NCBI RefSeq assembly: GCF_000143415.4
Contig: NW_003314389.1
Coordinates: 270,892-334,891, forward strand
Direction: 5' to 3'
DNA length: 64,000 nucleotides
Source: Selaginella moellendorffii
Lineage: Eukaryota; Plantae; Lycopodiophyta
How positions within the stretch are numbered: the first letter of the stretch is position 1; each line of letters opens with the position of its first letter. Shown here one piece after another: positions 1 through 64,000 of this stretch. The notes under the pieces are model-generated. The model was not told the origin of the DNA. It saw only the letters and a list, made by a program, of their open reading frames with translations, and did no database searches. The position numbers and the translations under genes are program-made.

Positions 1-412
1 AAGGACTTGATGGGGATTGAAGAAGCGATTTTGGGGAAGGGTGTTCCCCATATCTTTGAGCATTCTAAGGATGCTAAGGTGTAGTCTTGGGATGACCACT
101 CAGAGGGCCCAATGTATGAAAGACAAGACTATAGTATGGGTGGTTTTGGACTACCTATGAGACAAAGGTTAATAGACATAGCCATAGGACATAGTAATAG
201 ATTGATATATCAATGGTACTTTTGAGTGTCTATTGTGGATCGGACACATGGAGCACATGGACCAAGTGTAAAGGTTGAGTGGCATAAATGCCATTTATGG
301 GGCTAGTAAGTCCTCAAGTTGGAAATAAGACTTATGGAGGTTGTAAGTGAGACTCCTTCAAGTGGTCAATGGTTAAGTGACAAAAATGGAATGGAAAATT
401 TAATCACTTACA
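1..412 (+). mobile_element. Degenerate 3' part of a Gypsy LTR (LTR family B)
   Basis: Diverged homologue of 17280-17696, 32700-33116 and 43990-44406; ends ...AATCACTTACA like the other family-B LTRs. Confidence 0.75.
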
Positions 413-499
413 AAATTGTTATTACCATATGACTTGACTCAATACTTAATACTAGTTTATAGATGATAAGATATGATGAATTTTAATTTGGTATGATAC

Positions 500-2047: not shown

Positions 2048-2069
2048 GCTCTATTTCATTAAAGTGGGA
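2048..2069 (+). repeat. Terminal inverted repeat GCTCTATTTCATTAAAGTGGGA (copy 1, cargo-gene end)
   Basis: Exact reverse complement of 11259-11280. Confidence 0.92.
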
Positions 2070-2487
2070 ATTGTCATTATCCCACTTGTAAAATAAGGTT
2101 TCCAAACCTTTATATAGTATATAAATATAACAAAATTCAACTGCATTGAGGCACATGCCATTTTATTTTAAACAAGGAAATGTCTACTCAATCACTTCTC
2201 CTCCCCCTGCCACTACTTCACCTCTCTCTTCTCCTTGTCATCGTCGTCCAATTTCTTTCCATCCTTTTAATATTGGCTCAGTTGCTCCAAGTCTAGGTGG
2301 AGCCCAAGTCCCCATTCAATCTTTACTTTCCCCTTATTAATAAAACAACTTCGTAGACTTCCAATAACATGCTGTAACACTTCTAGTATAATGCAAATCC
2401 TCTCAAAGAATTGTCTTTTAATATTAATACAATGGCATGGAACCCCATGCCATAATAAGTTACATTTTTAAATAAATACATGCTATC

Positions 2488-5400: not shown

Positions 5401-7020
5401 GAAGCCGGCGGTCGACATCCCTCTTAATGAAATTTGGATACTGATCCAACTTCTCAGCTTTACTTTTCGTGGCATCCCGCAGCAGATCGATGAACTTGGG
5501 GGCCCCCTTCACGTACTTGTCGACGTCTTCATTTGACAACTCCAGCTCTTCCATCATCTCTTGCATGGTGTCGATGCTCACCCTCTCCACGGCCACTTGC
5601 TCGAAGATCCAATCCTTCAATAGCACACGAGCTCTCAGAGTCGTGCACAAGTCCTCGTATGTCACAATATGGCCGGGAGTCATTTTGGTCTTGTTGAAGA
5701 CTACCTCACCACGTAGAAGAGCATTAGCCACTGTCAGAAGGTCGTCGTCGTCTAGAGACCACGAGAAACGCAAGGCGTTGAGCTTCAAATCATTGGGCTT
5801 CCGGCTGTCCTCCACACCCATTGAGTTTAGCAACTCCCCATCATGGTACCTCCTCAGCACATCTACCCATTTGTCAAAAACAACTTTTGTCGCGAGTAGA
5901 ATGTTATGGATGCTGAGTGTGTCATTGACCCCCGTTGTTTTCGAGAGAAGACTCGAGAATTGGAAATGGCGTGAGGCCACATGCTATGCCACATGCAACG
6001 AGGCTTACCTGCCAGGCGCTAGTTGCTAGTGCACATCCTTATCCTGGTTTTTGTGGCTTTTTCAGTTGAACCCAGAGCTTCCGTGTTCGTGCCAATGTCT
6101 CGTGCAGACCCAATTTGTAGCACGTTTCTTGCTTGACATTCTGCGCATGGGAGATGTATATGATAGATCGGAGGGGCGAGTTGCCTTTTATCAGGCGGAC
6201 AACTCTTGTCTTGAAGACTTTCTTCACCTCCTCGCCCACCATAATATCCACAACTATCTCTTGTATCGCCAAGCTAGAATGCTGCCGGGAGACAGCATAG
6301 AACCGGATGTTCTGATCGTCCAACACCTTCCTATTGATCAAGTCTAGAAACCTCGTCTCGCCCTTCATTGTTCAGTAGTAGGGGATCACGTCTGCGATAT
6401 CGAGTGTTACTGGACTTGCCAGCATCTTCTGCTTCAGTTTCTCCACCCACTCATCAGATACTAGCCTGTGGTTGTATTTGCTTTGGATGTCAATGTGGCT
6501 CACGTCGATTGTATATACTTTGTTGGAATAGTAACAAGTACTATTATCTGCGACGATTTTTGCTGCCTCTTCTTGCTCTTTCTCCTCTTTGCGGCTCTTC
6601 TTTTTGGTGGGTGTAGTGTTCGAACTCGAGGCAATGGCATCACCGAGTAGCTTTTTTTTTGGAGTAGGAGAGTCGGACGTTAGCTTGAGCTTGACCACCC
6701 TTTTCTGCTTCGGGGTAGTTTCCAGATCGCCCCTTCGCTTCGCGAACTGGAGTCACTCTCAACGGCTCAATGTTGGAATATAGTTTTTGAACATCACCAT
6801 AGGTGAGGTCCGTGGATTCCATGTGATCTTCATAGACCCGCAGCGTCTTTGAAATTGTGGGCCTCCTGGACAACCTCTCCCTAGCTCCCTCTAGGAATTC
6901 CTCATAGCCGTTGCCCCCCTTCGGGAAGGCGCTAGGATGTGCAAGGTGAATCTTGAAGGTGGACGCTGTTTCTACCACAAGTGCCAGTCCATATTCTTGC
7001 ATGGAACTACATGGAGTGTC
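2488..7020 (-). pseudogene. Cargo gene of copy 1 (ParB-like / MTase-like / acidic linker / NIF-HAD phosphatase-like); 5'-truncated, with deletions and frameshifts
   Basis: ORFs 2537-3370 (YCIVFDLNGVL..IWTSM..LIIDDSP), 3407-3994, 4192-4815, 5084-5980, 6039-6698 and 6640-7065 match exons of the gene at 54160-63556. Confidence 0.85.
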
Positions 7021-7726
7021 TGGAGTGGGAGCGCGATGCGAGCGCGAGTACGAAGCAAAATGCAAAACCTAACCTCACACACGCGAAATGTCACGACGGT
7101 TGGTAATCCCACAACGTCATCATTTCTCGGACTTGGGTGCCACCATTAATTTCTGGATCGCCGCGCGCATGCATGCACGTGAAATCCAAAAGAAATCCGC
7201 AACGTCATCATTCCTCGGACTGCATGCACGCGAAATCCAAAAGAAAGATCATGATTAGGATATCATTTAATACCCTCGCTATATTTATACCATGCATGAT
7301 TGGATATTCCAAAGCATCTTGTATTTCCAAAAATGCCAGATGTTCAGCTAAATAAAGAATGGTATACAATGTCCTTCTTGATGACCCTGCAAAGAAGCAT
7401 CTCGATTGGACACCACATGAGACCACACAAGCCTTACCATGTTTCAGGGGCATTTGCCATAGATCCGACCGTTATTTTGCTCCAAGATTTTACAGTTTGG
7501 TGTGCATTGATCTTTCTATCGACACTGCAAAGGGACATCACAATCAGATGCGGGATCACAAGAAACTAACTTCACTAACTCTGGTTTCACCAAGATCTAC
7601 GTAAGGAGTTATGAAATGAAAGGACCCTCTCTATTGAAATGTGTTTATGGTCCTAGGGGCATTGTGACATATCAAAGGATTTTGCATCAAGTTCTGTATT
7701 TGCATGTTTATCAAGCTACTGAATTG

Positions 7727-7753
7727 CTAAACCCTAAACCCTAAACCCTAAAC
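7727..7753 (+). repeat. Interstitial plant telomeric repeat (CCCTAAA)n / telo-box cluster inside the transposon
   Basis: ctaaaccctaaaccctaaaccctaaac, located between the divergent genes. Confidence 0.9.
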
Positions 7754-8549
7754 ATGTGGCAAATGCTGCATGAAGAAAGATGCCCTTTCTGGGCAAATGC
7801 TGTAAGAGGCAGATGCCGAGCAGATGTATCTCAAGCTAGCGAAGGGGACAAACGAAAGCTAGCTATAAACATGACGGGATGCAAATAGATTACTAGGCTG
7901 GTCCTGCGAAAATCAAAAACCATAATTGAAAACATTGAAAATGCAAAAAGAAAGGTTTATAATATTTTTGAATTTTAAGCAACCAAAGGAATGTAAGTAG
8001 GGCATGTGTTTGTAAGTTTAAAAATGCCTCAACCATTTAAATTCCCAAGTAAATAAAGCTGTTTCTATTTTTGGTACAGGTAAACTTTATAGCGTGTGGG
8101 CTCATGCAATTTTGAACCCAAAAATGCACCAAAAAATGCTCGACTAGCATTATTCTTTGCATGGCATATGGCCTTATATTGCCATAAATGGACGTACACA
8201 CACAACATAATTATTCCTTTACACGGCGAATAATCTTGGCGCGGATCGCTGACATGGCATGGCAAAGTTCGAATCACTGACATGGCATAGCTAGATCGAG
8301 GCAAGGACATGATGTGACAAAGTTCAACCTCCGACAGCAAAGTCTAGAAGCTACTCAGTTTGAAATTTGTCAGAGGAATCATAAGATCTGGTTTGTCAGA
8401 GGATTTGATGTGACGTTCAAGCGTGTGTTATTTTTGAATTTTCGAACTCATTCCTAGGTCTATCATTTTTGTGTGCCGTGTTCTTGGTTCCGCTGAGCGC
8501 AGTGAGCGCTGCTTGTATAAGCGGCGTTGTGAGCTGTGGTTTATGCGTC

Positions 8550-8690
8550 TACGAGCGGTTGTGGCATTGCGAGCGCCATTGCGAGCGGCAGTTTATGCGA
8601 GTGGCAGTTTGTGCGAGCGGCGCTATGAGCAGTTGCGGTGTTGCGAGCGGCGCTACGAGTAGTTGCGGTGTTGCGAGCGGCATTGTCTTT
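8550..8690 (+). repeat. CpG-rich ~30-bp tandem repeat (GCGAGCGGCGCTACGAGTAGTTGCGGTGTT) upstream of the transposase
   Basis: About 3 units visible; homologue at 51030-51160 on the opposite strand. Confidence 0.75.
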
Positions 8691-9047
8691 GGTGTGGCTA
8701 CCGCTTCCTCTTGATATTCGGCACTTGTGCTTCCTGGTATGTTCACCATGGAATGGCTTAGGACCACATTTAGAAATGGCATGAGGCCACATGCCATCTT
8801 GGGCCCTTGCAATTTCATGGCTAGCTTATTATCATGTATGTTTTTACTTGCCTGCAGCTGTGTGTATATCAAGATGGCATGAGGGCTCATGCCAATTTTG
8901 TGAATGCGAAATTTCACGTGGGTGTCAATAGCATGTTTGAATAATGGCATGTGGCCTCATGCTATTGAGGTTGTTTGGTATGTTATGATTTAGGCCATTC
9001 TCCAATCATTTTTTGTATGGTCTTAACTTCTTTTCTGCACTTTCAGA

Positions 9048-10640
9048 ATGGCCTTCGCAAGTGCAATGCATGTTCCCTCTGTGGATCTTAAGAACCGTGC
9101 TACATGGATTCAGGCAAAGGTGTTTCTAAACAACCCCGAGGGGGAGGTGGTAGCTAAGGGCTTAGCCACAGTTGTCGATCCAAGAGATGCGGTTGCTAAT
9201 CAAAAATTGGGCTGGGATGATATTGGAGTTGCGATTTTAGAGGTTGTTGACACAGAAGAAAACAGTCTGACTATTGGAAGCATTGTGCGGTGGAAATTGA
9301 GGCACTTAGTGTTTGAGAATGTGAAGGATTCATAATCAAACACCACTACAACTGATGACAGAACATCTCTTCATGATAAAAGAAAGTACACCTTCCTAAA
9401 GCGCAGCCAAAGGGATCTGAGCAACGAACCGAAAAGGTAGAAAATGGTGATGGAGGTTCGAATGGTCTCGACAGTGGCTTGTTGCAAGAGGAGGTGCTGT
9501 CAACATGCTGATTGGGATGCTATTGAAGAGGAGAGAGCAAGATACAAGACATTGTCCTGGAAGGCAGCTCGCAATTTTGTGTATGAGGTATTACGGTCAT
9601 CTGTTGATGCTTCAGAACATCAGGTGGGGGGCATGGTCTTCCAGAGGGGTTTGGTCTGCATGAAGGCATGGAGAATCATTTATGGAGTCCCTCGAACCAT
9701 ATTCTACAGAATCAAAACTGAGTTCGAGGAACAAAGGGTTCAACAGGCAGTCCATGGGAACGACGGTACTCACAAAAGCAGGGGTCATGTTGTATATGGA
9801 GAGGCAATCTTCAAGAGGTTTGTCGAGACATGTAGCGAGCAGCAACCACATAAAACCCGCCTCTTGGAAGATGGAACTCGAGACACCCAACGAGTTCTCC
9901 CCTCCATGTATACCAAGGGGGCCATATTGGAAGATGTGAATCGGGAACTCCAGAGTAATGGCTACAGGAAGCTGAGCCAATCTAGATTTAGTAGATTATG
10001 GAGCAACAGGTTCAGGGATGTGAGTATAGGAAAGTACTCCAGCTTTTCAAAGTGTGACGAGTGCACTGCTATCAAAATGGCTTTGTCGAAGAATTCTTGC
10101 ATCACTCAAGAGCGAGAGACGTTGGTTAGAAGGTGGCTCGACCACAACATCGAGCAGAGAAGCTGCAGGACTGCATATTATCATAACAGGATTCTCTCCA
10201 TGGAGAGACCTGACTCTTACCTCTGCATCATCCACGACAAAGTAGACCAGAAAAAGACGTGCTTACCTCGACTCAATCCTGCCCCCAAGGCAATCTCTTC
10301 ATCCATGCAGCTGCCTGTGTCTCTGTTTGGCATAATCGCTCATGGGCATGGTGCCCAGAACTATGGGAACTTCTTTGTACCTCTATGGGGTGGCGGGGGT
10401 GCAAACATGATGATTGCGTCCCTAGCAAAACACTTAAGGTCTCTGCAAAGTGCGCAGACTGAGCTGAACGGCCAACCCTTGCATAAGGCCCTTGTCGATC
10501 GAACCCCATACAGGGTTCAGCTGGAGGAGGAGCAAAGGCTTGCAGTATCGCGTGGGGCCCCATGCCATCCCAGTGAATATGTTGGCCGTCAGATTGTAGG
10601 GTTATCACGTGAGGCCTCATGCCATTACGACGAGGTTGGT
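9048..10640 (+). pseudogene. Transposase, N-terminal ~530 aa (Tnp1/EnSpm-like domain, Cys-rich region, first catalytic Asp); C-terminus deleted
   Basis: ORFs 9048-9335 and 9444-10784 are in one frame, broken by TAA 9333 and TAG 9438. Motifs CCKRRCCQH, VCMKAWRIIYGV, FSKCDEC and CIIHDKVDQKK. Overlaps the copy-2 transposase from CLPRLNP to YDEVG. Confidence 0.85.
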
Positions 10641-11258
10641 CCTCATGCCATTTACTTGATCACCAAATACCTTTTTCCCTTTGCACTAGTATATCTTAAT
10701 ACCGGTTTGAGAAATAGAATGGCATGTGCCCTCAGGCCTTTTACTAAATCACCTTTGAAAGAAATGCAAGCCTCTATGTCGTAAAAAAAAGGTACTAGAG
10801 AAATTCCTTAATAATATGAATGTTATTTAGTTTCATGAAAATACACTAAGGGTCAAATGAGTTAAATGACTTCTCCAGACTAGCAATGCCTCTTGCTACA
10901 CCTTCACAATTAGATTCGTTAGAAAAAGATAACATTGAATAATATCTAAATGTTCTCACCATTAAGTTATATGTCTGGCTAATAGGAATGACGTTCATCT
11001 TGGAAAGCTCACCACACGCTCAATGAACAAACAAATAGTGTGTGCGCGCATGCCATCGCTCTTCTTTAGCTTCAGATTCGGCTTGTTCACCTTGACAATG
11101 AGATTTATTATACAACCAAATGGACTCAATCTGGACACAAAGTCACCGCGCTAGTCACCATGCCCCAGATATGTCTAGCCCCTGGACAAAAAACATATAA
11201 TTTCACGTCATTTTCAAATACTTGAAAGTTTGTACCTAGTCCCATTTTATTGAATAAA

Positions 11259-11280
11259 TCCCACTTTAATGAAATAGAGC
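11259..11280 (-). repeat. Terminal inverted repeat (copy 1, transposase end)
   Basis: TCCCACTTTAATGAAATAGAGC. Confidence 0.92.
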
Positions 11281-48379: not shown

Positions 48380-48447
48380 TGTAAGCCATAAATTTTTCTT
48401 TTCCAATTTGCTAGCTTATCTCATCTATCTGACTAGTACTGCTTTAA
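48380..48447. mobile_element. End of a family-A LTR into which transposon copy 2 is inserted
   Basis: TGTAAGCCATAAATTTTTCTTTTCCAATTTGC matches 36558 onwards. Confidence 0.8.
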
Positions 48448-49061
48448 GCTCTATTTCGTTAAAGTGGGATTTATTCAGTAAAATGGGACTAGGTACAAAT
48501 TTTCAAGTATTTGAAAATGACGTGAAATTATATGTTTTTTGTCCAGGGGCTAGACATATCTGGGGCATGGTGACTAGCGCGGTGACTTTGTGTCCAGACT
48601 GAGTCCATCTGGTTGTATAAAAAATCTCATTGTCAAGGTGAACAAGCCGAATCTGAAGTTAAAGAAGAGAGATGGCATGCGCGCACACATTATTTGTTTG
48701 TTCATTGAGCGTGTGGTGAGCTTTCCAAGATGAACGTCATTCCTATTAGCCAGACATATAACTTAATGGTGAGAACATTTAGATATTATTCAATGTTATC
48801 TTTTTCTAACGAATCTAATTGTGAAGGTGTAGCAAGAGGCATTGCTAGTCTGGAGAAGTCATTTAACTCATTTGACCCTTAGTGTATTTTCATGAAACTA
48901 AATAACATTCATATTATTAAGGAATTTCTCTAGTACCTTTTTTTTACGACATAGAGGCTTGCATTTCTTTAAAAGGTGATTTAGTAAAAGGCCTGAGGGC
49001 ACATGCCATTCTATTTCTCAGACCGGTATTAAGATATACTAGTGCAAAGGGCCACATGCCA

Positions 49062-50750
49062 TCACGCCTCCTCTGATTCAGATTCGGATTGTTCACCTTG
49101 AAATAAAATACATTAGAAACTTAGTAAAGGAATATTAATGAATCTCACCTTGAACCCGGGTTATGAATGCTCTTGCTGCATCTCTTGCATGGTCTGGCAA
49201 GGTGATGGTGGCACTCTGCTTCCGCATCCAACCATGCACAACATTATCCACCGATATGCTCATGCTGGGATCCCTTGGATTCAGCACCCATCTCTTTTCT
49301 AGGCAATCCTTCGTATATCCGGAACTTGGCTTGAACCACTCCACAGTTACATTGAAGGAGTTAGTTTCCGCGTCCTCCTCTGCATTAGTGATGCAGCGCC
49401 CCACCCATATCATTTGTTTTTTATTACTGGGTCTGACAAGCACGACCATTCCTTTGCAGACCTGTACTGGATTGAATGCTGAATCCGGCTTCTTGTTCCT
49501 CGGCCCACAATAGTGATCCTCAACATCGTTATCTGTCACTGCATTTCCAGAGGACATTGTTCCGCTACTATCTGGTGCTCTGGGTTCTGGCCAAAAGGAC
49601 TCTTCCAATTCTTCATATACAACCGGCCCATTTTGGATAGCAGATATAATCTTCTCCCAGTATTCGAGCAAAGGCTTGCACCTCTTAAAATAGGATTCTC
49701 CACCAAACACCAACCCCCTCTTCCAGAAGGCAATATGCTGTCTAATCCCGGCCACTATACTTTCCTGGTCTTTGAGTCCATCCGGGTGCATCGGCCGTGG
49801 GGAACCCTGAGGAATCATAGGTTCCCCAATTATGGGATCTCTCTTGAAGAGTTCAATGCCATCCACTGGCAGCCACACTGTGTCCCATTCTCTCATCTTG
49901 TACCTCATCACTAGAGCACCGTCACGCATGCTGAAATGAAACTGAAGAGGCTTGGAGTGGCCAATCAGCGTTTCGGATCCGTCCCTGATGTAGCCTCTTA
50001 CAAACCCCTTAAAGTCTGGAACCTATGTCACAAGTGCAGCTTCAACAGTGCCTTTGATGCAATTTTGGAATTCATCGTAGAGTTGTGGGAGGGTGAGGAC
50101 ATTGGATCGCCGGAGGGACTCTGCCAGGTGACTGAACATGGCATCGACGTCTTCATGAGTGTGCCCAACCATGAGAAAGCCAAGTGTAACCGTTTCAAAT
50201 ATGCCTTTGGCAACAAGCATCGCCAAGTATGCGAAGACGTACATGTTTTTGTTCTCACTGCCAGCATTGTCTGTTTGGAGCAGAAGATGGGGTGGAAGGC
50301 CACATCGGCCGCAAGAACTTCCTTGAGATTCTGCTTCGTTTGGATGAGGCTGTGCATTCACCGGGCGACCAACCTCGTCGTAATGGCATGAGGCCTCACG
50401 TGATAACCCTACAATCTGACGGCCAACATATTCACTGGGATGGCATGGGGCCCCACGCGATACTGCAAGCCTTTGCTCCTCCTCCAGCTGAACCCTGTAT
50501 GGGGTTCGATCGACAAGGGCCTTATGCAAGGGTTGGCCGTTCAGCTCAGTCTGCGCACTTTGCAGAGACCTTAAGTGTTTTGCTAGGGACGCAATCATCA
50601 TGTTTGCACCCCCGCCACCCCATAGAGGTACAAAGAAGTTCCCATAGTTCTGGGCACCATGCCCATGAGCGATTATGCCAAATAGAGACACAGGCAGCTG
50701 CATGGATGAAGAGATTGCCTTGGGGGCAGGATTGAGTCGAGGTAAGCACG
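49062..50750 (-). pseudogene. Transposase, C-terminal part (catalytic core + C-terminal beta-barrel-like domain); N-terminus deleted
   Basis: LLLQTDNAGSENKN and FLMVGHTHEDVDAMFS motifs. ORFs 50023-50829 and 49135-49929 are in frame across one TAG. A short last intron gives ..RVQ/GEQSESESEEA*. Confidence 0.87.
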
Positions 50751-50822
50751 TCACCCATACAAAAATATATACAGTTGCAGCAAGGCAAAAGGAATATGGC
50801 AATAGGCTAGCAGGGGCCAAAG

Positions 50823-50844
50823 ATGGCATGAGGCCTCATGCCAT
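50823..50844. promoter_or_regulatory. Representative perfect copy of the element-wide palindrome ATGGCATGAGGCCTCATGCCAT (putative protein-binding site)
   Basis: Perfect dyad, extending to 28 bp (50820-50847); dozens of variants across both transposon copies. Function is inferred. Confidence 0.6.
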
Positions 50845-51478
50845 CTTGATATACACACAGCTGCAGGCAACTAAAAACATACATGACAATACGCTAGCCA
50901 TGAAATTGCAAGGGCCCAAGATGGCATGTGGCCTCATGCCATTTCTAAATGTGGTCCTAAACCATTCCATGGTGAACATACCAGGAAGCACAAGTGCCGA
51001 ATATCAAGAGGAAGCGGTAGCCACACCAAAGACAGTGCCGCTCGCAACACCGCAACTACTCGTAGCGCCGCTCGCAACACCGCAACTGCTCGTAGCGCCG
51101 CTCGCACAAACTGCCACTCGCATAAACTGCCGCTCGCAATGGCGCTCGCAATGCCGCAACCGCTTATAGACGCATAAACCACAGCTCACAACGCCGCTTA
51201 CACAAGCAGCGCTCACTGCGGTCAGCGGAACCAAGAACACGGCGCACAAAAATGATAGACCTAGGAATGAGTTCGAGAATTCAAAAATAACACACGCTTG
51301 AACGTCACATCAAATCCTCTGACAAACCAGATCTTATGATTCCTCTGACAAATTTCAAACTGAGTAGCTTCTAGACTTTGCTGTCGGAGGTTGAACTTTG
51401 TCACATCATGTCCTTGCCTCGATCCAGCTGTGCCATGTCAGTGATTCGAACTTTGCCATGCCATGTCAGCGATCCGCG

Positions 51479-53336
51479 CCAAGATTATTCGCCGTGTAAA
51501 GGAATAATTATGCTGTGTGTGTACGTCCATTTATGGCAATATAAGGCCACATGCCATTCAAAGAATAATGCTAGTCGAGCATCTTTTGGTGCATTTTTGG
51601 GTTCAAAATTGTATGAGCCCACATGCTATAAAGTTTACCTGTACCAAAAATAGAAACAGCTTTATTTACTTGGGAATTTAAGTGGTTAAGGCATTTTTAA
51701 ACTTACAAACACATGCCCTACTTACATTCATTTGGTTGCTTAAAATTCAAAAATATTATAAACCTTTCTTTTTGCATTTTCAATGTTTTCAATTATGGTT
51801 TTTGATTTTCGTAAGACCAGCCTAGTAATCTATTTGCATCCCGTCATGTTTATAGCTAGCTTTCGTTTGTCCCCTTCGCTAGCCTGAGATACATCTGCTC
51901 GGCATCTGCCTCTTACAGCATTTGCCCAGAAAGGGCATCTTTCTTCACGCAGCATTTGCCACATGTTTAGGGTTAGGGTTTAGGGTTTAGGGTTTAGCAA
52001 TTCAGTAGCTTGATAAACATGCAAATACAGAACTTGATGCAAAATCCTTGGATATGTCACAATGCCCCTAGGACCATAAACACATTTCAATAGAGAGGGT
52101 CCTTTCATTTCATAACTCCTTATGTAGATCTTGGTGAAACCAGAGTTATTGAAGTTGGTTTCTTGTGATCCCGCATCTGATTGTGATGTCCCTTTGCAGT
52201 GTCGATGGAAAGGTCAATGCACACCAAACTGTAGAATCTTAGAGCAAAATAACGGTCGGATCTATGGCAAATGCCTCTGAAAAATTGTAAGGCTCGTGTG
52301 GTCTCATGTGGTGTCCGATCGAGATGCTTCTTTGCAGGATCATCAAGAAAGACATTGTATACCATTCTGTAAAATCTAGTTGCGATCTAACGGTTGGATC
52401 TCCAGGAAACTCAAAACAATCTCGCGCGTGTTAGAATATTCTAGGAATATACTCCTATGTGCTCCAAGATTATTCGCCGTGTAAAGGAATAATTATGCTG
52501 TGTCATTTATGGCAATATAAGGCCACACGCCATTCAAAGAATAATGCTAGTCGAGCATTTTTTGGTGCATTTTTGGGTTCAAAATTGCATGAGCCCACAC
52601 GCTATAAAGTTTACCTATACCAAAAATAGAAACAGCTTTATTTACTTGGGAATTTAAGTGGTTGAGGCATTTTTAAACTTACAAACACATGCCCTACTTA
52701 CATTCCTTTGGTTGCTTACATTCCTTTGGTTGCTAGCTTTCGTTTGTCCCCTTCACTAGCCTGAGATACATTTGCTCGGCATCTGCCTCTTACAGCATTT
52801 GCCCAGAAAGGGCATCTTTCTTCACGCAGCATTTGCCACATGTTTAGGGTTTAGGGTTTAGGGTTTAGCAATTCAGTAGCTTGATAAACATGCAAATACA
52901 GAACTTGATGCAAAATCCTTGGATATGTCACAATCCCCCTAGGACCATAAACACATTTCAATAGAGAGGGTCCTTTCATTTCATAACTCCTTACGTAGAT
53001 CTTGGTGAAACCAGAGTTAGTGAAGTTGGTTTCTTGTGATCCCGCATCTGATTGTGATGTCCCTTTGCAGTGTCGATGGAAAGGTCAATGCACACCACAC
53101 TGTAGAATCTTGGAGCAAAATAACGGTCGGATCTATGGCAAATGCCCTTGAAACATTGTAAGGCTCGTGTGGTCTCATGTGGTGTCCGATCGAGATGCTT
53201 CTTTGCAGGGTCATCAAGAAGGACATTGTATACCATTCTGTAAAATCTAGTTGCGATCTAACGGTTGGATCTCCAGGAAACTCAAAACAATCTCGCGCGT
53301 GTTAGAATATTCTAGGAATATACTCCTATGTGCTCC
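51479..53336 (+). repeat. Direct tandem duplication of the intergenic/promoter region (51479-52465 repeated at 52464-53336)
   Basis: The second unit restarts at CCAAGATTATTCGCCG; both units contain the telomeric cluster. Confidence 0.85.
51965..51997 (+). repeat. Interstitial (TTTAGGG)n cluster
   Basis: gtttagggttagggtttagggtttagggtttag; a second cluster at 52842-52868. Confidence 0.9.
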
Positions 53337-53764
53337 TGAAAATGGCATGCGGCCCCACGCCATTCAAGAGATAACGCCAGATGACGCCGAGCATTTTTTG
53401 GTGCATTTTTTGGGATCAAAATTGCATGAGCCCACATGCTTGAACGTCACATCAAATCCTCTGACAATTTATTTAGCTGAACATCTGGCATTTTTGGAAA
53501 TACAAGATGCTTTGGAATATCCAATCATGCATGGTATAAATATAGCGAGGGTATTAAATGATATCCCAATCATGATATTTCTTTTGGATTTCGCGTGCAT
53601 GCAGTCCGAGGAATGATGACGTTGCAGATTTCTTTTGGATTTCACGCATGCGCGCGCCGATCCAGAAATTAATGGTGGCGCCCAAGTCCGAGAAATGATG
53701 ACGTGGCGGGATTACCAACCGTCGTGACATTTCGCGCGTGTGAGGTTAGGTTTTGCATTTTGCT

Positions 53765-53985
53765 TCGTACTCGCGCTCGCACACTCGCGCTCGCATCGCG
53801 CTCCCACTCGCGCTCGCATCGCGCTCCCACTCGCGCTCGCATCGCGCTCCCACTCGCGCTCGCATCGCGCTCCCACTCGCGCTCCCACTTCTCTACAGGT
53901 TTCTCGTGTGCATCGGCGTCCACTCGCGCTTGCATCACACTCGCGCTCGCATCGCGCTCGTGTGCATCGGCGTCCACTTCAAGAC
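53765..53985 (+). repeat. CpG-rich 23-bp tandem repeat (CACTCGCGCTCGCATCGCGCTCC)n upstream of the cargo gene
   Basis: About 5 near-perfect units plus variants. Confidence 0.88.
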
Positions 53986-54159
53986 ACACCCAGTTTGTAA
54001 CTTCGCCGCCAACTCCGCCGCCCACTCCGCCACCCACACGCAGCCCACTTGGCGTCCCGGGAGATTTCAGCGCCAGAGTAGCCTTGCTGCTACGATCCGC
54101 TGCACACACAGTGCACATTCGCCAGCGAGTCCGGTTGTCACGCCTCCATTCGGCTTCAA

Positions 54160-57100
54160 ATGGTAAGTCTTTTAGGCCAAGTAGAAAATGGCATGAGGCC
54201 ACATGCCATTCAGTAGCAACATTGGCATGCACCGATTGGGCTCTCGAGTGCAGTCCGGTTACAGATGGCGTGTAGCCTCACGCCATCTTAGGATGCAGCC
54301 TCAAGACATCTGATGCAGTGGTGAATGGCGTGTGGCCTCACGTTATTTCCAGCTACTAGCTTTTCATCTGTCAGCTCTAATTGTTGTGCATTTCTGAACA
54401 GGCGAGGAATTGCATTCTTCTTCCAGCCACTGTCAATGTGGATGCAGAGAAGGGGGAGGAGCTCACCAGTTAGACTTTCGAGATGGAAGGCGAGGATCTG
54501 AGGCTGTACAACACAGATGGTGGGAGAAAAGAATGCATGGGGATCCTCATCCAAGTGACAGACACTCCATGCAGTTCCATGCAAGAATATGGACTGGCAC
54601 TTGTGGTAGAGACAGCATCTGCCTTCAAGATCCACCTTGCACATCCTAGCGGCTTCCCGGAGGGGGGCAGCGGCTATGAGGAATTCCTAGAGGGAGTTAG
54701 GGAGAGGTTGTCCAGGAGGCCCACAATTTCAAAGACGCTACGGGTCTATGAAGATCACATGGAATCCACGGACCTCACCTACGGCGATGTTCAAAAACTA
54801 TATTCCAACATTGAGCCGTTGAGAGTGACTCCAGTTCGCGAAGCAAAGGGGAAGGGGGTCGATCTGGAAACTACCTCGAAGCAGAAAAGGGTGGTCAAGC
54901 TCAAGCCGACGTCCGACTCTCCTGCTCCAAAAAAGAAGTTACTCAGTGATGCCATTGCCTCGGGTTCGAACACTACACCCACCAAAAAGAAGAGCCGCAA
55001 AGAGCAGAAAGAGCAAGAAGAGGCAGCAAAAATCGTCGCAGATAATAGTACTTGTTACTATTCCAACAATGTATATACAATCGACGTGAGCCGTATCGAC
55101 ATCCAAAGCAAATACAACCACAGGCTAGTATCTGATGAGTGGGTGGAGAAACTGAAGCAGAAGATGCTGGCAAGTCCAGTAACACCCGACATCGCAGACG
55201 TGATCCCCTACTACCGAACAATGAAGGGCGAGACGAGGTTTCCAAACTTGATCAATAGGAAGGTGTTGGATGATCAGAACATCCGGTTCTATGCCGTCTC
55301 CGGGCAGCATTCTAGCTTGGCGATGCAAGAGATAGTTGTGGATATTATGGTGGGCGAGGAGGTGAAGAAAGTCTTCAAGACAAGAGTTGTCCGCCTGATA
55401 AAAGGCAACTCGCCCCTCCGATCTATCATATACATCTCCCACGCGCAGAATGTCAAGCAAGAAACGTGCTACAAATCGGGTCTGCACGAGACATTGGCAC
55501 GAACACGGAAGCTCTGGGTTCAACTGAAGAAGCCACAAAAACCAGGACAAGGACGTGCACTAGCAACTAGCGCCTGGCAGGTAAGCCTCGTTGCATGTGG
55601 CATAGCATGTGGCCTCACGCCATTTCCATTGCAGGAATTCTCGAGTCTTCTCTCGAAAACACTGGGGGTCAATGACACACTCAGCATCCATAACATACTA
55701 CTCGCGACAAAAGTTGTTTTTGACAAATGGGTAGATGTGCTGAGGAGGTACCATGACGGGGAGTTGCCAAACTCAATGGGTGTGGAGGACGGCCGGAAGC
55801 CCAATGATTTGAAGCTCAACGCCTTGCGTTTCTCGCGGTCTCTAAACGACGACGACCTTCTGACAGTGGCTAATGCTCTTCTACGTGGTGAGGTTGTCTT
55901 CAACAAGACCAAAATGACTCCCGGCCATATTGTGACATACGAGGACTTGTGCACGACTCTGAGAGCTCGTGCGCTATTGAAGGATTGGATCTTCGAGCAA
56001 GTGGCCGTGGAGAGGGTGAGCATCGACACCACGCAAGAGATGATGGAAGCGCTGGAGTTGTCAAATGAAGACATCGACGAGTACGTGAAGGGGGCCCCCA
56101 AGTTCATCGATCTGCTGCGGGATGCCACGAAAAGTAAAGCTAAGAAGTTGGATCAGTATCCAAATTTCATTAAGATTGATGTCGACCGCCGGCTTCAGAA
56201 ACAGCTCGACCCCGCAGCAGAGGCCTATCGAGAACCTTACCGGGTATACTTGAATTCGGATGAGGATCAAAGGTGGAGGAGCATCGTTTCCCGCGGAGAT
56301 GAGCAGGTCAAGAACATCTTTTGTGTGATGGACTTCACAAACGAGGAGATCACTCATGCAGACGAAGTCAGCTCCATCATTGACTTAATGGTGGGACTTG
56401 CGGAGGTGGAATCTTCAGTCCACTATATGATCTACGACTCCGAATCCTATCACAAGTTCTGGAAGGCCTTGAACGAGGTGAAGGCTCGGTTGAAAGGCAA
56501 AGAGATGCGGGAGATCCATGGGATAATGGCTAAGAAGAAAATACCGACGAATGTCCGCATCTTCACACTCGCCCTTGTTATTGGTCCTGCAGCAGAGTGG
56601 GACTGGAGTGACTTCCCAGCTTCATTCGACAAGGCCGATCGAATTGATCTGAGGGAGGTCAATTTACCCGTGCCTGAGGAACTGAAGACGGCTATGGAGC
56701 TTTCGAATCCAGAGAAAGCTCCAGGTGCAGCATGGGAAATGCTCAACTGGGTCTTCAACGCAATAGCGGGTGGGTCACCTGCTTCCGACTCCAAGGGCAA
56801 ATGCGTTGTCGAGTACAACTGCGGCGGACTATTCTTTCGAGCCGCACTACTCAAGGGTGTCCCGTGTGTTGCGGTGACAAACTCCATTGAAGAGGTGACT
56901 TCAATGGAGCATATAATTACAGTTGCCAAAGAAAAATAGTATCTTCTCTGCGAACCTAGTGAGTACGCACTTTAAGTTTAAATGTTATCTCACAAGCTCT
57001 GTATGCAGGAGTGTGGCCACCCCCAGATGCTGAAACGGCGTTAACAGCTACTGTTGAAGATACCCATGTTGGGCCGAGCTCACAACTTGCACAAGGTAAG

Positions 57101-60100
57101 GTCACGTGAGGCCTCACGCCATTTTGATTATAGATCGTTGTGAATATTCAGACACGAGGACTGAAAAGCGCACTGGTGGCGCATCGAAGAAGGACAAACA
57201 GACAAGCAATAGGAAAAAAGGAGGTACAAATTATATTTGCAATGGCGTGTGGTCTCATGCCATTCCTTGCAGGAGACACTTCTTCAAAGGCAAAACAAGC
57301 AAGCACCAGCCAAGTACAACGGACGAGAGGTACCAATCATTTTTGTTATACGTGAATTCTCATGCCATTGCTTCTTGCAGCTCAAATTCCAAAGAGACTA
57401 AGGCAAGCAGCGCAGACCTCACGACAAGAACCTGAAGGTTTGATGGCGTGTGGCCCCACTCAATTAACTAATGTTCTTGCAGATCGCGTCGAGGAAATCG
57501 AACGGAACAACGTGCCTCCAGTGGAGGAGGGGGAGGCCTCGAAGAGTGATAAGGAGAGTTCCGAAACAGGTACGATCATGACATATGGCCCTATGCACTT
57601 ATCTAAGTTTGTATTTCAGGGGAACGAGTTGAACCAATGGAAAACTTTATGAAAGGTAACTAAAAAATATTATGGGATGTTGCATGTGTTGATGCAATAA
57701 TATACAGTTCAAGTGCCAAGGAGATGTCGTGAACCTTGAATTAGGCTACCTACAAAACAACTTTCAGACGCTGTAGACAAAGAGATGGACAACCGACCAG
57801 GGCAGAGGAGGAAGGGTAAAAGCATTTGTATGCTTATCGCGTATGTCCTCATGCTATTTCTGTAGAACGGGTGCATAAAAAACGAAAGCGAAAGGGAATT
57901 GAGGAGCAGGCACCTGAGGATGCCGAAGGCACGACAGAGCCTCCAAGGACGGGAAGTAAAGCGTCATGGTTATTGCGTGGGTCCTCATGCCATTTCTTGC
58001 AGATCAAGCTCAAACTGACAGTGGTCATAAAAAGCGAAAGCACGTTGGACAGTCGTCGGGATCAGAGGCGTTTGATTCGAAAAGGAAGAAGGGCAATGAA
58101 AAGATGATAGGTAATGCCTCACGGTTATGGCGTGTGTGCTCATGCCATTCATTGCAGATCAAGGGCTGAGTGAAAGCAGCCAGTCACCACCTCCTGACTC
58201 AGATTCCTATGGTGGACTCCCCTTCCCCAATCTCAATGGAGAGGTACAATGGATGAGGGATGCTTTTCAAGTCAGGGCCACGTTTTTCTCATCTCGTCGT
58301 CTTCGAAGGGTGCAAGAACGTGCAGAAACCATGTTAAGACAGTCGGGTGAGGATACGGTCCTAGGTCACGCACTAAAACAGGCTATGGATGTCTTGTATT
58401 TTGAGATGGAGATTGGGCCAGATGATTTTCCCAAGATGGTCCTGGAAGAACAAGCCATCCAGCCTGAGCAGCCTATGGAAGAAATGTAGGAGGGGGATGA
58501 GGAGCCAGAGAAAGATAATGAGCAGGAAGAGCAGAAGGACGAAGAGGAGGACAAAGAAGAGGAGGACGAAGAAGAGGAAGATGAAGAAGAGGAGGACGAA
58601 GAGGACTTGGATGGTCCTCACAATGGTGACGATCACAATAACGACGATGACGATGATGACGACGATGGCCAGCCTGAGGTGGCCAAAGAGCAGCGGAGGA
58701 AGGTCATACAAGACAAACCATCAGGTAAATAATAGTACATCCATTCCTAACCTTTTACCATTTCTAACATTGTCCATGTAGGTCGCAGAGCAAATGGTAA
58801 GTAGAGATTATTCAGTTGAATTAAGATACAAACTCTAGCCTTTAGTGTCGAGGAAGGATAGTGCCAAGCAAGGGTCGAAACGTATGTCCAATCCTTCAGA
58901 ATCAGCAGTGCGCCCAAGTGATATTGGTCCTAGTTCCTCAATAGCAGTTGATGGTAAATACAGTATAGTCGATTCAATGTGCTAATGAGTTTGTTTTTAG
59001 TAGCACGGGAGGATACCATCTCAATCGAAGGGAGATATTTGGACATGCATATGGATCCGCCAGTGGACTCTACTTGCCTGTAAGAGTCATCAGAACTGGT
59101 GGAGGCTACTATCCATATCAACGCCAAGCAAGCTGACCACGCTCCACTTGATGCTGCCCATACCACTGAGTCAATCTTGTCCACGTATCCAACTGACGGT
59201 GACCAGGCGCCATTGGACCCGCATGAGGCCGCCCCAGCCGTCGAGCCGGTCGTATCCTCATTTCCAACGGACTCAACGTGTGCCCAATCGTCTGACTATG
59301 CGCCGTTGGAACCTCCCTACACCGCCCTTGCTGCCTGTTCGGTCATGTCCACTTTGCCAACGGAGGCACCAACTGAAATGGCGTGTGATCACACGCCATC
59401 AGAACCACCCCATGCCACTATTGAGCCAGTTGTACCAGAGTCTACAGCTGAAATGGCATGTGCCCACACGCCATCGGATGCGATTGACCCCAACCTTTAC
59501 AGCTCCACTAGCACCATCTTCAGCACCACCATCGACAATGGGGAGTTGCTAAACTCAATGGGTGTGGAGGACGGCCGGAAGCCCAATGATTTGAAGCTCA
59601 ACGCCTTGCGTTTCTCGCGGTCTCTAGACGACGACGACCTTCTGACAGTGGCTAATGCTCTTCTACGTGGTGAGGTAGTCTTCAACAAGACCAAAATGAC
59701 TCCCGGCCATATTATGACATACGAGGACTTGTGCACGACTCTGAGAGCTCGTGCACTATTGAAGGATTGGATCTTCGAGCAAGTGGCCGTGGAGAGGGTG
59801 AGGATCGACACCACGCAAGAGATGATGGAAGAGCTGGAGTTGTCAAATGAAGACATCGACGTACGTGAAGTACGTGAAGGGGGCCCCCAAGTTCATCGAT
59901 CTACTGCGGGATGCCACGAAAAGTAAAGCTGAGAAGTTGGATCAGTATCCAAATTTCATTAAGAGGGATGTCGACCGCCGGCTTCAGAAACAGCTCAACC
60001 CCGCAGCAGAGGCCTATCGAGAACCTTACCGGGTATACTTGAATTCGGATGAGGATCAAAGGTGGAGGAGCATCGTTTCCCGCGGAGATGAGCAGGTCAA

Positions 60101-63100
60101 GAACATCTTTTGTGTGATGGACTTCACAAACGAGGAGATCACTCATGCAGACGAAGTCAGCTCCATCATTGACTTAATGGTGGGACTTGTAGAGGTGGAA
60201 TCTTCAGTCCACTATATGATCTATGACTCCGAATCCTATCACAAGTTCTGGAAGGCCTTGAACGAGGTGAAGGCTCGGTTGAAAGGCAAGGAGATGCGGG
60301 AGATCCATGGGATAATGGCTAAGAAGAAGATACCGACGAATGTCCGCATCTTCACACTCGCCCTTGTTATTGGTCCTGCAGCAGAGTGGGACTGGAGTGA
60401 CTTCCCAGCTTCGTTCGACAAGGCCAATCGAATTGATCTGAGGGAGGTCAATTTACCCGTGCCTGAGGAACTGAAGACGGCTATGGAGCTTTCGAATCCA
60501 AAGAAAGCTCCAGGTGCAGCATGGGAAATGCTCAGCTGGGTCTTCAACGCAATAGCGGGTGGGTCACCTGCTTCCGACTCCAAGGGCAAATGCGTTGTCG
60601 AGTACAACTGCGGCGGACTATTCTTTCGAGCCGCACTACTCAAGGGTGTCCCGTGTGTTGCGGTGACAAACTCCATTGAAGAGATGACTTCAATGGAGCA
60701 TATAATTACAGTTGCCAAAGAAAAACAGTATCTTCTCTGCGAACTTGGTGAGTACACACTTTAAGTTTAAATGTTATCTCACAAGCTCTGTATGCAGGAG
60801 CGTGGCCACCCCCAGATGCTGAAACGGCGTTAACAGCTACTGTTGAAGATACCCATGTTGGGCCGAGCTCACAACCTGCACAAGGTAAGGTCACGTGAGG
60901 CCTCACGCCATTTTGATTATAGATCGTTGTGAATATTCAGACACGAGGACTGAAAAGTGCACTGGTGGCGCATCGAAGAAGGACAAACAGAAAAGCAATA
61001 GGAAAAAAGGAGGTACAAATTATATTTGCAATGGCGTGTGGTCTCATGCCATTCCTTGCAGGAGAAACTTCTTCAAAGGCAAAACAGGCAAGCACCAGCC
61101 AAGCTCAAACTGACAGTGGTCATAAAAAGCGAAAGCACGTTGGACAGTCGTCGAGATCAGAGGCGTTTGATTCGAAAAGGAAGAAGGGCAACGAAAAGAT
61201 GATAGGTAATGCCTCGCGGTTATGGCGTGTGTGCTCATGCCATTCATTGCAGATCAAGGGCTGAGTGAAAGCAAGCAGTCACCACCTCATGACTCAGATT
61301 CCTATGGCAGACTCCCCTTCCCCAATCTCAATGGAGAGGTACAATGGATGAGGGAAGCTTTTCAAGTCAGGGCCACGTTTTTCTCATCTCGTCGTCTTCG
61401 AAGGGTGCAAGAACGTGCAGAAACCATGTTAAGACAGTCGGGTGAGGATACGGTCCTAGGTCACGCACTAAAACAGGCTATGGATGTCTTGTATTTTGAG
61501 ATGGAGACTCGGCCAGATGATTTTCCCAAGATGGTCCTGGAAGAACAAGCCATCCAGCCTGAGCAGCCTATGGAAGAAATGCAGGAGGGGGATGAGGAGC
61601 CAGAGAAAGATAATGAGCAAGAAGAGCAGAAGGACGAAGAGGAGGACAAAGAAGAGGAGGACGAAGAGGACTTGGATGGTCCTCACAATGGTGACGATCA
61701 CAATAACGACGACGACGATGATGACAACGATGGCCAGCCTGAGGTGGCCAAAGAGCAGCGGAGGAAGGTCATACAAGACAAACCATCAGGTAAATAATAA
61801 TACATCCATTCCTAACCTTTTACCATTTCTAACATTGTCCATGTAGGTCGCAGAGCAAATGGTAAGTAGAGATTATTCAGTTGAATTTACAAACTCTAGC
61901 CTTTAGTGTCGAGGAAGGATAGTGCCAAGCAAGGGTCGAAACGTATGTCCAATCCTTCAGAATCAGCAGTGCGCCCAAGTGATATCGGTCCTAGTTCCTC
62001 AATAGCAGTTGATGGTAAATACAGTATAGTCGATTCAATGTGCTAATGAGTTTGTTTTTAGTAGCACGGGAGGATACCATCTCAATCGAAGGGAGATATT
62101 TGGACATGCATATGGATCCGCCAGTGGACTCTACTTGGCTGCAAGAGTCATCAGAGCTGGTGGAGGCTACTATCCATATCAACGCCAAACAAGCTGACCA
62201 CACTCCACTTGATGCTGCCTATACCACTGAGTCAATCTTGTCCACGTATCCAACTGACAGTGACCAGGTGCCATTGGACCCACATGAGGCCGCCCCAGCC
62301 GCCGAGCCGGTCGTATCCTCATTTCCAACGGACTCAATGTGTGCCCAATCGTCTGACTACGCGCCGTTGGAACCTCCCTACACCGCCCCTACTGCCTGTT
62401 CGGTCATGTCCACTTTGCCAACGGAGGCACCAGCTGAAATGGCGTGTGATCACACGCCATCGGAACCACCCCATGCCACTGTTGAGCCAGTTGTACCAGA
62501 GTCTACAGCTGAAATGGCATGTGCCCACACGCCATCGGATGCGATTGACCCCACATTGCAGAGGAGAGTATTTCCGCCCTTCACGTTTCCTCGACCAAAA
62601 CCCTCTCAACGACCATCGGGAGCAACATTCGCTAATATTGTAGATGGTAAAATTGACTTGTACCATTTTTTATGCTGACGCATTTCATTTCAGAGTCACG
62701 GTGAAGGTACTGTATCGTTTTTGATCTAAACGGTGTCCTTTTCTCCCATGAGCGTGGCTCGTCCTCGAATGTCATTGCACCCTCCAAAGCCTGCGGTCGC
62801 AAGTTGGTCAAAAGAGACAGATTCACATTAATCACACGGGAGAAACTGCGGGATCTAATAATGACCATGCGACACTTAAAACAGAGGGCCGGGTTCAATT
62901 TGCAATTGGGAGTTTGGACATCCATGATGCGCCACAATGCATTAACGTTGCTACAGATGATGCACGATCAGACGCGAGTAATATTACCATTTGACTTTCT
63001 CCTAACGCAGGAGGATTGCTTGACTATGGTCCATGTGAGGGGTAGCAAGCCCATCTTCGTCAAGCCAGAGGCTGTAGTGATGAACCGGACTGCTAGCTCA

Positions 63101-63556
63101 AGTGAAATCCTCATCATCGATGACTCGCCGATTAAAACTGCAGCGAACACGCACACATATGCAGTGCACCCCATCTCTTGCAGTATGGAAACTAGGGAGA
63201 AGAAACCGTATGTTCTGGGGGACCTTGCAAAACGGCTTGGAGCGATGGTGATAGAGAACCGGCCAGTCCAGGAGGTGGCTGCAGAAATCAACCAAATGGC
63301 AGATGGAACGGTATATCAGAAGCCATTTGATCGGACAGACACCAGTCATCATTTATGGCATGTATATTGTCTAGCCAAGCACTATCCGCATCTCCATAAT
63401 CTGCTCAACCGGATGGGTTCTTCGACCACTGAACATGAGCGTGGACGTATTAGAGAAGAGATGGCATTACTATTGGGTTTAAATCCTGATAGTGTGGAGA
63501 GTGATGAAATTCCAAGATTATTGTATAGGCGTTGGAGGCAAAAAATAACAGTCTGA
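54160..63556 (+). CDS. Multi-exon transposon cargo gene: ParB/Srx-like + degenerate N4/N6 DNA-MTase-like + low-complexity linker + NIF/FCP1-like HAD domain (this copy has point stops and an internal duplication)
   Basis: ATG 54160, intron 54163-54401, 818-aa ORF with in-frame intron 55581-55634, then 14 phase-1 GT-AG introns keeping frame up to the DLNGVL/WTS/IIDDSP domain ending at TGA 63554-63556. Confidence 0.8.
59538..62552 (+). repeat. Internal tandem duplication of cargo-gene segment 55756-59490 (second unit lacks ~690 bp)
   Basis: Sequence restarts at GGGGAGTTGCTAAACTCAATG; ORFs 59847-60764 and 61222-61797 duplicate earlier ones. Confidence 0.9.
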
Positions 63557-64000
63557 GATGGCATGTATTTATTTAAAAATGTAACTTATTATGGCATGGT
63601 GTTCCATGCAATTGTATTAATATTAAAAGACAATTCTTTGAGAGGATTTGCATTATACTAGAAGTGTTACAGCATGTTATTGGAAGTCTACGAAGTTGTT
63701 TTATTAATAATGGGAAAGTAAAGATTGAATGGGGACTTGGGCTCCACCTAGACTCGGAGCAACTGAGCCAATATTAAAAGGATGGAAGGAAATTGGACGA
63801 CGATGACAAAGAGAAGAGAGAGGTGAAGCAGTGGCAGGGGGAGGAGAAGTGATTGAGTAGACATTTCCTTGTTTAAAATAAAATGGCATGTGCCTCAATG
63901 CAGTTGAATTTTGTTATATTTATATACTATATAAAGGTTTGGAAACCTTATTTTACAAGTGGGATAATGACAATTCCCACTTTAACGAAATAGAGCTTCT

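Follow-up and report, generated by a model that had tools for sequence, protein, structure and literature searches.

The window analysed here is a stretch of 64,000 nucleotides from Selaginella moellendorffii (contig NW_003314389.1). It carries two copies of a DNA transposon with terminal inverted repeats (TIRs) and, dispersed through both copies, a 22-bp palindrome with the consensus ATGGCRTGDGGCCHCAYGCCAT. The two copies are in inverted orientation and are 94.6-99.7% identical in a self-comparison (Table 1). The 22-bp TIRs were found at all four ends and start with GCTCT. The element encodes two divergent genes arranged head-to-head: an intron-free gene for a DUF7869 transposase, which we take to be Sola-like, and an accessory gene with predicted short introns. 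Deletions have divided the transposase gene between the two copies. Copy 2 additionally bears internal duplications, in which 55758-57314 recurs at 59540-61103, 58005-59492 at 61100-62553, and 51855-52603 at 52732-53440.

The remainder of the window (1-2047 and 11281-48446) consists of nested Gypsy retrotransposons of different ages, with a ratio of observed to expected CpG of 0.09-0.67. By this measure the element (0.67, 0.74) is not set apart from the younger Gypsy stretches (0.51-0.67). Copy 1 interrupts a gag-pol region, and both of its flanks match adjoining parts of 33692-35153. We examined this site for a 4-bp target-site duplication, but the flanks AAAA and ATAA lie within an A-run and the comparison with the empty site is ambiguous. 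Copy 2 is flanked by TTAA and TTCT, the window ending 4 bases further on, and its left end adjoins sequence resembling a long terminal repeat.

Table 1. Coordinates of the element copies, their genes, predicted protein domains and palindromes in the window.
Feature	Position	Strand	Remarks
Element copy 2	48447..63996	.	TIR DNA transposon retaining both ends; interior rearranged; decayed
Element copy 1	2048..11280	.	inverted relative to copy 2; inserted in decayed Gypsy gag-pol region
22-bp TIR, copy 2, transposase-side end	48447..48468	+	GCTCTATTTCRTTAAAGTGGGA
22-bp TIR, copy 2, other end	63975..63996	-	
22-bp TIR, copy 1	2048..2069	+	
22-bp TIR, copy 1	11259..11280	-	
Transposase gene, 3' part (DUF7869)	49135..50751	-	PF25273 E 1.8e-37 and homologues; 5' part missing, one in-frame stop
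Transposase gene, 5' part, intron-free	9048..10641	+	tblastn with P0006, 95% over 531 aa; 3' part missing, two in-frame stops
Accessory gene (copy 2a)	54483..59491	+	14 introns predicted, 45-57 nt each; four premature stops
Accessory gene, internal duplicate (copy 2b)	59540..63556	+	runs through intron 15 (62647-62693) into last exon
Accessory gene in copy 1	2537..7022	-	carries deletions
Predicted ParB/Srx-fold domain	55050..55472	+	model residues 8-148; SGQHS box at the GxxR position
Helical region after ParB domain, candidate DNA-binding part	55635..56220	+	predicted local distance difference test (pLDDT) mostly 60-90
Methylase-like region without catalytic motifs, lead only	56241..56939	+	ESM Atlas 0.80-0.81 to N6_N4_Mtase clusters
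NIF (HAD/FCP1-like) phosphatase-domain exon	62705..63556	+	PF03031 E 3.8e-6
Palindromes near transposase-side end	48672..49062		48672, 48988, 49041; copy 1: 11035, 10719
Two palindromes in transposase coding DNA	50383..50461		least conserved insertion; copy 1: 10547, 10604
Transposase-leader and intergenic palindromes	50823..53442		50823, 50921, 51608, 52584, 53342, 53421; copy 1: 8089, 8776, 8874, 8944
Three palindromes in accessory-gene 5' leader	54188..54346		54188, 54265, 54325
Nine palindromes in predicted introns	55602..58148		55602, 57101, 57242, 57347, 57443, 57578 (weak), 57836, 57972, 58127
Two palindromes in accessory coding DNA	59378..59474		75-bp duplication, EMACDHTPS / EMACAHTPS; repeats 62439, 62514, 3496, 3571
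Two weaker palindromes near other end	63591..63904		63591, 63883; copy 1: 2432, 2140
Telomere-type (GTTTAGG)n run	51965..51997	-	between divergent genes; again 52842-52868; copy 1 7729-7750

A palindrome confined to the element

A preliminary description of the window had reported the palindrome ATGGCRTG-N6-CAYGCCAT as repeated throughout the element and absent from the Gypsy DNA between the copies, and both statements held. The window contains 18 exact matches, compared with a mean of 0.00 in 100 shuffles, and 36 matches with at most two mismatches (shuffles: mean 0.07, largest 1). A profile built from these 36 near matches and applied at a threshold of at least 8 bits found 45 palindromes, all within the element copies (15 in copy 1, 30 in copy 2); use of this profile makes the inside count circular, but not the outside zero. 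No profile match was found in the approximately 39 kb of the window outside both copies, even at 6 bits. The spacer was indeed fixed at 6 bp: with one mismatch allowed per arm, this length gave 11 matches in copy 1 and 18 in copy 2, whereas spacers of 0-5 and 7-15 gave none in either copy.

The sites listed in the preliminary description were real matches, lying within 3 bases of a profile match in 13 of 13 cases for copy 1 and 29 of 30 for copy 2, where 57347 turned out to be a half-decayed site. Many of them are, however, duplicates, as the two copies are sisters in inverted orientation and copy 2 is internally duplicated. Such duplications inflate the count, and the non-redundant set comprises 26 distinct sites; it was made by hand from 27 rows, with 53421 dropped as a probable duplicate and the weak sites 57578 and 49041 kept.

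The symmetry of the site could reside in DNA or in RNA. The half-site reads ATGGCRTG-D-G-g, and the centre does not vary freely as had been described, since positions 10/13 (G/C) hold 1.57 bits, equal to the arm positions. At the R/Y positions the two arms vary independently of each other (8 AT, 3 AC, 9 GT and 5 GC; Fisher p=1.0), and positions 9/14 gave p=0.58 for covariation, the commonest pair being T-T. On the transcribed strand we found no preference for G.U (11) over A.C (8; p=0.65). Among all changes in the sites, 46 are one-sided, 8 two-sided and only 3 compensated. Because the arms do not covary and the centre is conserved, we infer that the palindrome is recognised as double-stranded DNA, by a protein with two-fold symmetry, and is not an RNA hairpin. 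Of the two options offered earlier, the covariation analysis thus favours the dimeric DNA-binding site. The preliminary description had named neither the ParB-fold gene of the element as the likely binder nor the location of many sites within introns.

The palindromes are concentrated in non-coding DNA (22 of 26, against 37% expected; p=1e-6), and their density per kb falls from 12 in introns to 3.2 in other non-coding DNA and to 0.49 in coding sequence. Nine of the 15 predicted introns hold a palindrome, which in six of them lies 8-12 nt before the acceptor. The insertion that holds the coding sites of the transposase has an identity of 0.05 and 0.00 to six full-length relatives, compared with 0.27-0.57 over residues 381-480, and the accessory coding palindromes fall in a low-complexity linker; within coding DNA, palindromes occur solely at variable stretches of the protein. 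Over 48672-59453 the longest gap between successive palindromes is 1499 bp. A 47-nt inverted repeat (48633-48679 / 49055-49101, 81% complementary) was also seen, each arm of which touches a palindrome.

The earlier suggestion that the sites had not arisen by tandem slippage and have unrelated flanks was correct only in part. Introns 10 and 11 align over their full length, as do introns 4 and 5, the leader units and the 75-bp coding unit, pointing to local duplication of exon-plus-intron or leader units, although the flanks of a site are less well preserved than the site itself.

The accessory gene and its protein

Removing 14 GT-AG introns from 54483-59491 yielded 1435 codons with 4 stops, compared with 26-37 stops per frame over 56940-59000 without splicing. 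Introns 2-14 of the spliced model are all in phase 1, and the predicted intron 15 joins the NIF phosphatase exon in frame; fourteen consecutive phase-1 introns lie in 56959-59000 plus 62647-62693. Because the flanking introns are all phase 1, the small exons between them are symmetric and could be gained or lost in frame. Copy 2a alone has a 690-bp in-frame block (57315-58004), with four of the listed sites and one weak site, that copy 2b and copy 1 lack. The difference in this block between copies, together with the duplicated introns 10/11 and 4/5 and leader units, indicates that sites are gained and lost in modules.

The position of intron 1 has independent support, as a Selaginella RefSeq model reads WQ-EF across it and four further relatives end at the same place, in WKV. 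Eight RNA runs compared with 48400-59540 yielded 3-13 reads (three raw-read runs) or 1-11 contigs (the others), with no splice joint at any predicted intron. One RNA contig (54168-54560) runs unspliced through three leader palindromes, and we therefore do not call the leader palindromes intronic. An abundant transcript shares the short stretch 54074-54102 with the accessory-gene leader, seen as a 31-base piece of a contig (depth 3200, run X11) and as a loose end in the X10 reads. Moreover, a small number of reads from stranded RNA (first mate on minus) fall on the leader at 53980-54723; their differences from this copy hint that another element copy is transcribed at a low level. Telomere-type AAACCCT runs lie upstream of the transposase here and in one relative (L029:3830-3870).

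The structure of the accessory protein was modelled from a 22-row alignment and is confident over most of residues 10-390. Residues 8-148 matched PadC (Z 9.5, root-mean-square deviation 3.2, 100 aligned), KorB (Z 8.6) and the ParB of pNOB8 (Z 8.6), whereas unrelated structures scored Z 5.3 or less. The top eight Foldseek rows were all Noc/ParB proteins (E 5e-3 to 4e-2), including Noc and ParB bound to their palindromes. The N-terminal domain is accordingly predicted to adopt a ParB/Srx fold. The Foldseek alignments span about 280 columns and reach the helical region, and Spo0J 35-306 matched at Z 4.5. GxxR is the nucleotide-binding motif of ParB/Noc/KorB cytidine triphosphate (CTP) hydrolase clamps; its position reads SGQHS across the accessory family, the S being nearly invariant in 14 relatives.

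In the ESM Atlas, residues 190-560 lie near DUF3723 clusters (0.96-0.97). DPPY-like and FxGxG motifs are catalytic motifs of methylases, as DxD is of NIF phosphatases. The methylase-like region has neither of the former and gave no Pfam, PADLOC or PDB match, the model being of low confidence there, and the NIF motif reads DLN in place of DxD. Both parts look catalytically degenerate in their motifs. The best relative of the accessory protein is from S. moellendorffii itself (29% identity), which, taken with the tiny introns, points to a lycophyte as host. A HMMER search gave 20 hits, of which three (P0026, P0037 and P0039) were left out as chance. Word-indexed homologue searches with the protein and its alignment gave no matches, profile searches of PDB sequences gave no ParB or methylase match, and the ParB alignment matched nothing in viral or metagenome contigs when used as query in locus searches.

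Palindromes in related elements

With the transposase alignment we collected 80 metagenome loci (the best 80 of 217) and one genome contig, 81 loci in total; the transposase and the palindrome motif as queries had no match in viral contigs. An over-represented dyad (corrected p<1e-4) was found in 13 of 68 loci of at least 2.5 kb, compared with 0 of 68 resampled controls. Eight loci were followed up with self-seeded profiles, L066 having passed a looser cut only, and each holds long palindromes of its own sequence in 4-31 copies: L001 has 9 around GCCATATGGC; L003 has 5 of the form GGCTCAAAC-N4-GTTTGAGCC; L026 has 12 (TACGAACG-NN-CGTTCGTA); L029 has 11 (TACGGACG-CG-CGTCCGTA), one of them inside the transposase; and L063, L077, L081 and L066 have 5, 4, 31 and 5, respectively. 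The motifs are clade-specific, and that of the window occurs in 0 of the 81 loci. The palindromes of L026 and L029 differ by one base per half-site (GAACG and GGACG), and their transposase segments are 67-87% identical; from these sequences the pair appears to be a natural specificity switch.

In L081 a ParB-like gene stands head-to-head with the transposase. This Sola-like element (L081:4357-14370), with apparently spliced genes and palindromes in two arrays, lies on a contig titled as a Nitrospirales metagenome-assembled genome, and is probably eukaryotic host DNA binned into it. L066:1255-11374 contains a multi-gene cassette upstream of a DUF7869-type transposase, with its five palindromes at 3093-3715; a frame at 7589-8590 resembles a cytosine methylase by eye, although a Pfam search gave no match. 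The compact element L015/L016 (133-bp TIRs, 2.8 kb, one gene) has dyads within the TIRs only, and its relatives at 78-87% identity have no palindrome array. Dyad matches were also seen in L020 and L069, while L070 and L071 are tandem arrays. A 9.8-kb element with 514-bp TIRs (L043:17-9819) has no palindrome array at the threshold used.

Candidate docking sites for a ParB-like protein

We consider it probable, at roughly 0.6, that the 22-bp palindromes are parS- or operator-like candidate sites at which the element's own ParB-like protein docks, in the manner of VANC of VANDAL transposons or plasmid KorB. The protein would bind the palindrome as a dimer, one subunit per half-site. It would load there like ParB at parS or KorB at operators, could then coat the whole element, and might act in trans on every copy belonging to its family. 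As both the methylase-like and the phosphatase-like part seem degenerate, we favour the function of a binding scaffold, which would keep the two divergent genes expressible against host methylation in a VANC-like form of anti-silencing; alternatively, the protein may tune transcription of the two genes. The palindromes would have spread via duplication of small exon-plus-intron units and leader units, and since the former are phase 1, duplication could add palindromes without breaking the protein.

Several observations weigh against this interpretation. The Foldseek E values are 5e-3 or weaker, and because the clear structural matches cover the N-terminal domain only, the DNA-binding part is no more than a candidate. 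The CTP-binding arginine is replaced family-wide, and sliding as a clamp may therefore not apply. A ParB-like gene together with palindromes occurs in only 1 of the 81 loci, and the match is weak (L081; hidden Markov model E 0.004, HH probability 62%); most contigs are too short. Moreover, the L081 arrays lie toward both element ends, fitting the transposase equally well. L066 has palindromes and no detectable ParB match, and the palindrome-free compact group is a single family, which makes it a weak comparison. Between the copies, palindromes are not better conserved than other sequence (8/252 versus 200/7508, p=0.55). Finally, the substitutions of the element copies show transitions at CG 10.5%, CHG 7.0% and CHH 1.9%; as this decay is of the methylation type, these copies had no lasting protection.

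The main competing explanation is that the palindromes are binding sites of the transposase, serving self-activation or end pairing like dispersed subterminal repeats. Some palindromes do lie close to both ends, at a distance of some 100-600 bp, and the transposase leader holds three; in L001, L003, L026 and L029 they cluster upstream of the transposase with no accessory gene visible on the contig. A 2026 preprint moreover reports a Mutator transposase that activates cognate copies sequence-specifically. We nevertheless regard this explanation as rather unlikely, given that the densest cluster is in the accessory-gene introns, 4-8 kb from either end, that the palindrome is unlike the TIR, and that such an array is missing from a compact family whose transposase is related. 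CACTA-type elements have CACTA ends and motifs confined to the ends; subterminal repeats of this type were rejected, as the ends here are GCTCT and the palindromes run through the whole element. A dimeric host factor, recruited to drive or shield the element genes, would suit the clusters in both 5' leaders beside telomere-type boxes, and the half-site text presumably resembles YY1- and TCP-type motifs. Related elements, however, carry unrelated palindromes, even within one metagenome assembly (L001 and L003), as a fixed host factor would not permit, and the 39 kb of neighbouring DNA has no palindrome, making this an improbable alternative.

An RNA hairpin controlling the splicing of the 45-57 nt introns would agree with the intron sites close to acceptors, and of eight introns bearing a site, two fold better than their shuffles (z below -2). 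The other six fold no better, 17 of the 26 palindromes are not in introns, and six introns of similar kind lack a palindrome; with the missing covariation and G.U bias and the conserved bases of the unpaired centre, a splicing hairpin is very improbable. We give equally little credit to the palindromes being neutral relics of a tiny intron-creating mobile element, or by-products of local duplication, despite the clear origin of some of them in unit duplication and the lack of excess conservation between copies. The position of intron 1 is common to relatives of <30% identity, so the palindrome did not create this intron. The flanks, inspected by eye, have no shared target duplications around the sites, against the possibility, raised earlier, of mobile-element relics with duplications of their own. 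Most flanks are unalignable while the palindrome persists, also in coding DNA, and unrelated families independently carry palindromes of their own. A relic of an introner or a miniature inverted-repeat transposable element in particular fits neither the shared intron 1 position nor the 17 sites outside introns.

The proposed docking sites have counterparts in known systems. In Ectocarpus, the Sola1-1_Ec32 element (282-bp TIRs, AACCG ends, 4-bp target-site duplication biased to end in A) has a gene on the opposite strand for a ParB-like protein with an N4/N6 methyltransferase, proposed to bind and modify its own element (PMC12477816). The present element is likewise a large TIR element with a ParB-like accessory gene on the strand opposite the transposase. 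It differs in its land-plant host, a methylase-like part without catalytic motifs, the fused NIF domain, 22-bp TIRs with GCTCT ends and a defined candidate site, whereas the main text on Sola1-1_Ec32 does not contain the string 'palindrom' and names no target site (PMC12477816). In the red alga Bostrychia, the ParB-like gene PAG3 of Plavaka lies beside inverted-repeat arrays proposed as binding sites (bioRxiv 10.1101/2025.02.11.637652). The combination of a ParB-like accessory gene and inverted repeats is shared with our element, but Plavaka has an EnSpm-type transposase, a 2-oxoglutarate oxygenase effector and tandem arrays beside PAG3 instead of sites dispersed in introns, leaders and coding DNA. 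Both the ParB-like gene design (Sola1-1) and ParB plus inverted repeats (Plavaka) are thus already in print for algae, as proposals.

VANC of the Arabidopsis VANDAL elements binds family-specific motifs in introns and non-coding DNA that spread by tandem duplication (PMC5735166). Here too, the element encodes a protein and carries motifs that are specific to its family, have spread by tandem duplication and are densest in introns and in intergenic and terminal non-coding DNA. VANDAL elements are, however, of the Mutator type, with non-palindromic motifs of 8-9 bp, and their binding and demethylation were shown experimentally (PMC5735166). Our element has a DUF7869 transposase and a ParB-fold accessory protein, for which we saw no sign of VANC kinship, the VANC sequence not having been compared directly.

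Unlike in ParB-parS, Noc-NBS and KorB-OB, the GxxR motif is altered here and no ParA or KorA partner was seen. The ParB/Srx N-terminal fold, predicted here, and short palindromes, here putative loading sites, are common to all of them, although those systems are bacterial, with 16-bp sites and a CTP clamp (PMC8367383; PMC11790492). KorB, a ParB-family clamp, regulates promoters up to 1.5 kb from its operator, a reach similar to the largest palindrome gap here (PMC11790492). Our literature searches brought up no description of a comparable site in any land-plant element; there was no paper with DUF7869 in its full text and none combining DUF3723 with ParB, or ParB with methylase, Selaginella and transposon. 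The available parts of PMC4738411, PMC9033089, PMC5751038 and PMC4455052 hold no description of the palindrome.

In a wider and tentative generalization, which we doubt more than we believe, land-plant Sola-like transposons would run a private ParB/parS system of bacterial type as a second, independently evolved form of anti-silencing. A self-encoded clamp would load on family-specific palindromes within tiny introns, spread along the entire element and shield it from host methylation without methylase activity of its own, the protein and its site co-diverging by family.

The weight of the finding is limited by the idea being in print for algae, by the copies being dead and by the inferred nature of the binding. 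Nevertheless, the element offers, for a land plant, a well-defined candidate pair of protein and site, the latter in 26 natural variants, and with the sister-family sites one base apart per half (L026 and L029) it makes binding, specificity switching and the effect on methylation directly testable. If the interpretation is true, it would reveal a second way to achieve sequence-specific anti-silencing, as well as a bacterial DNA-clamp fold put to use in a eukaryote, by which an element could recognise and control its own family.

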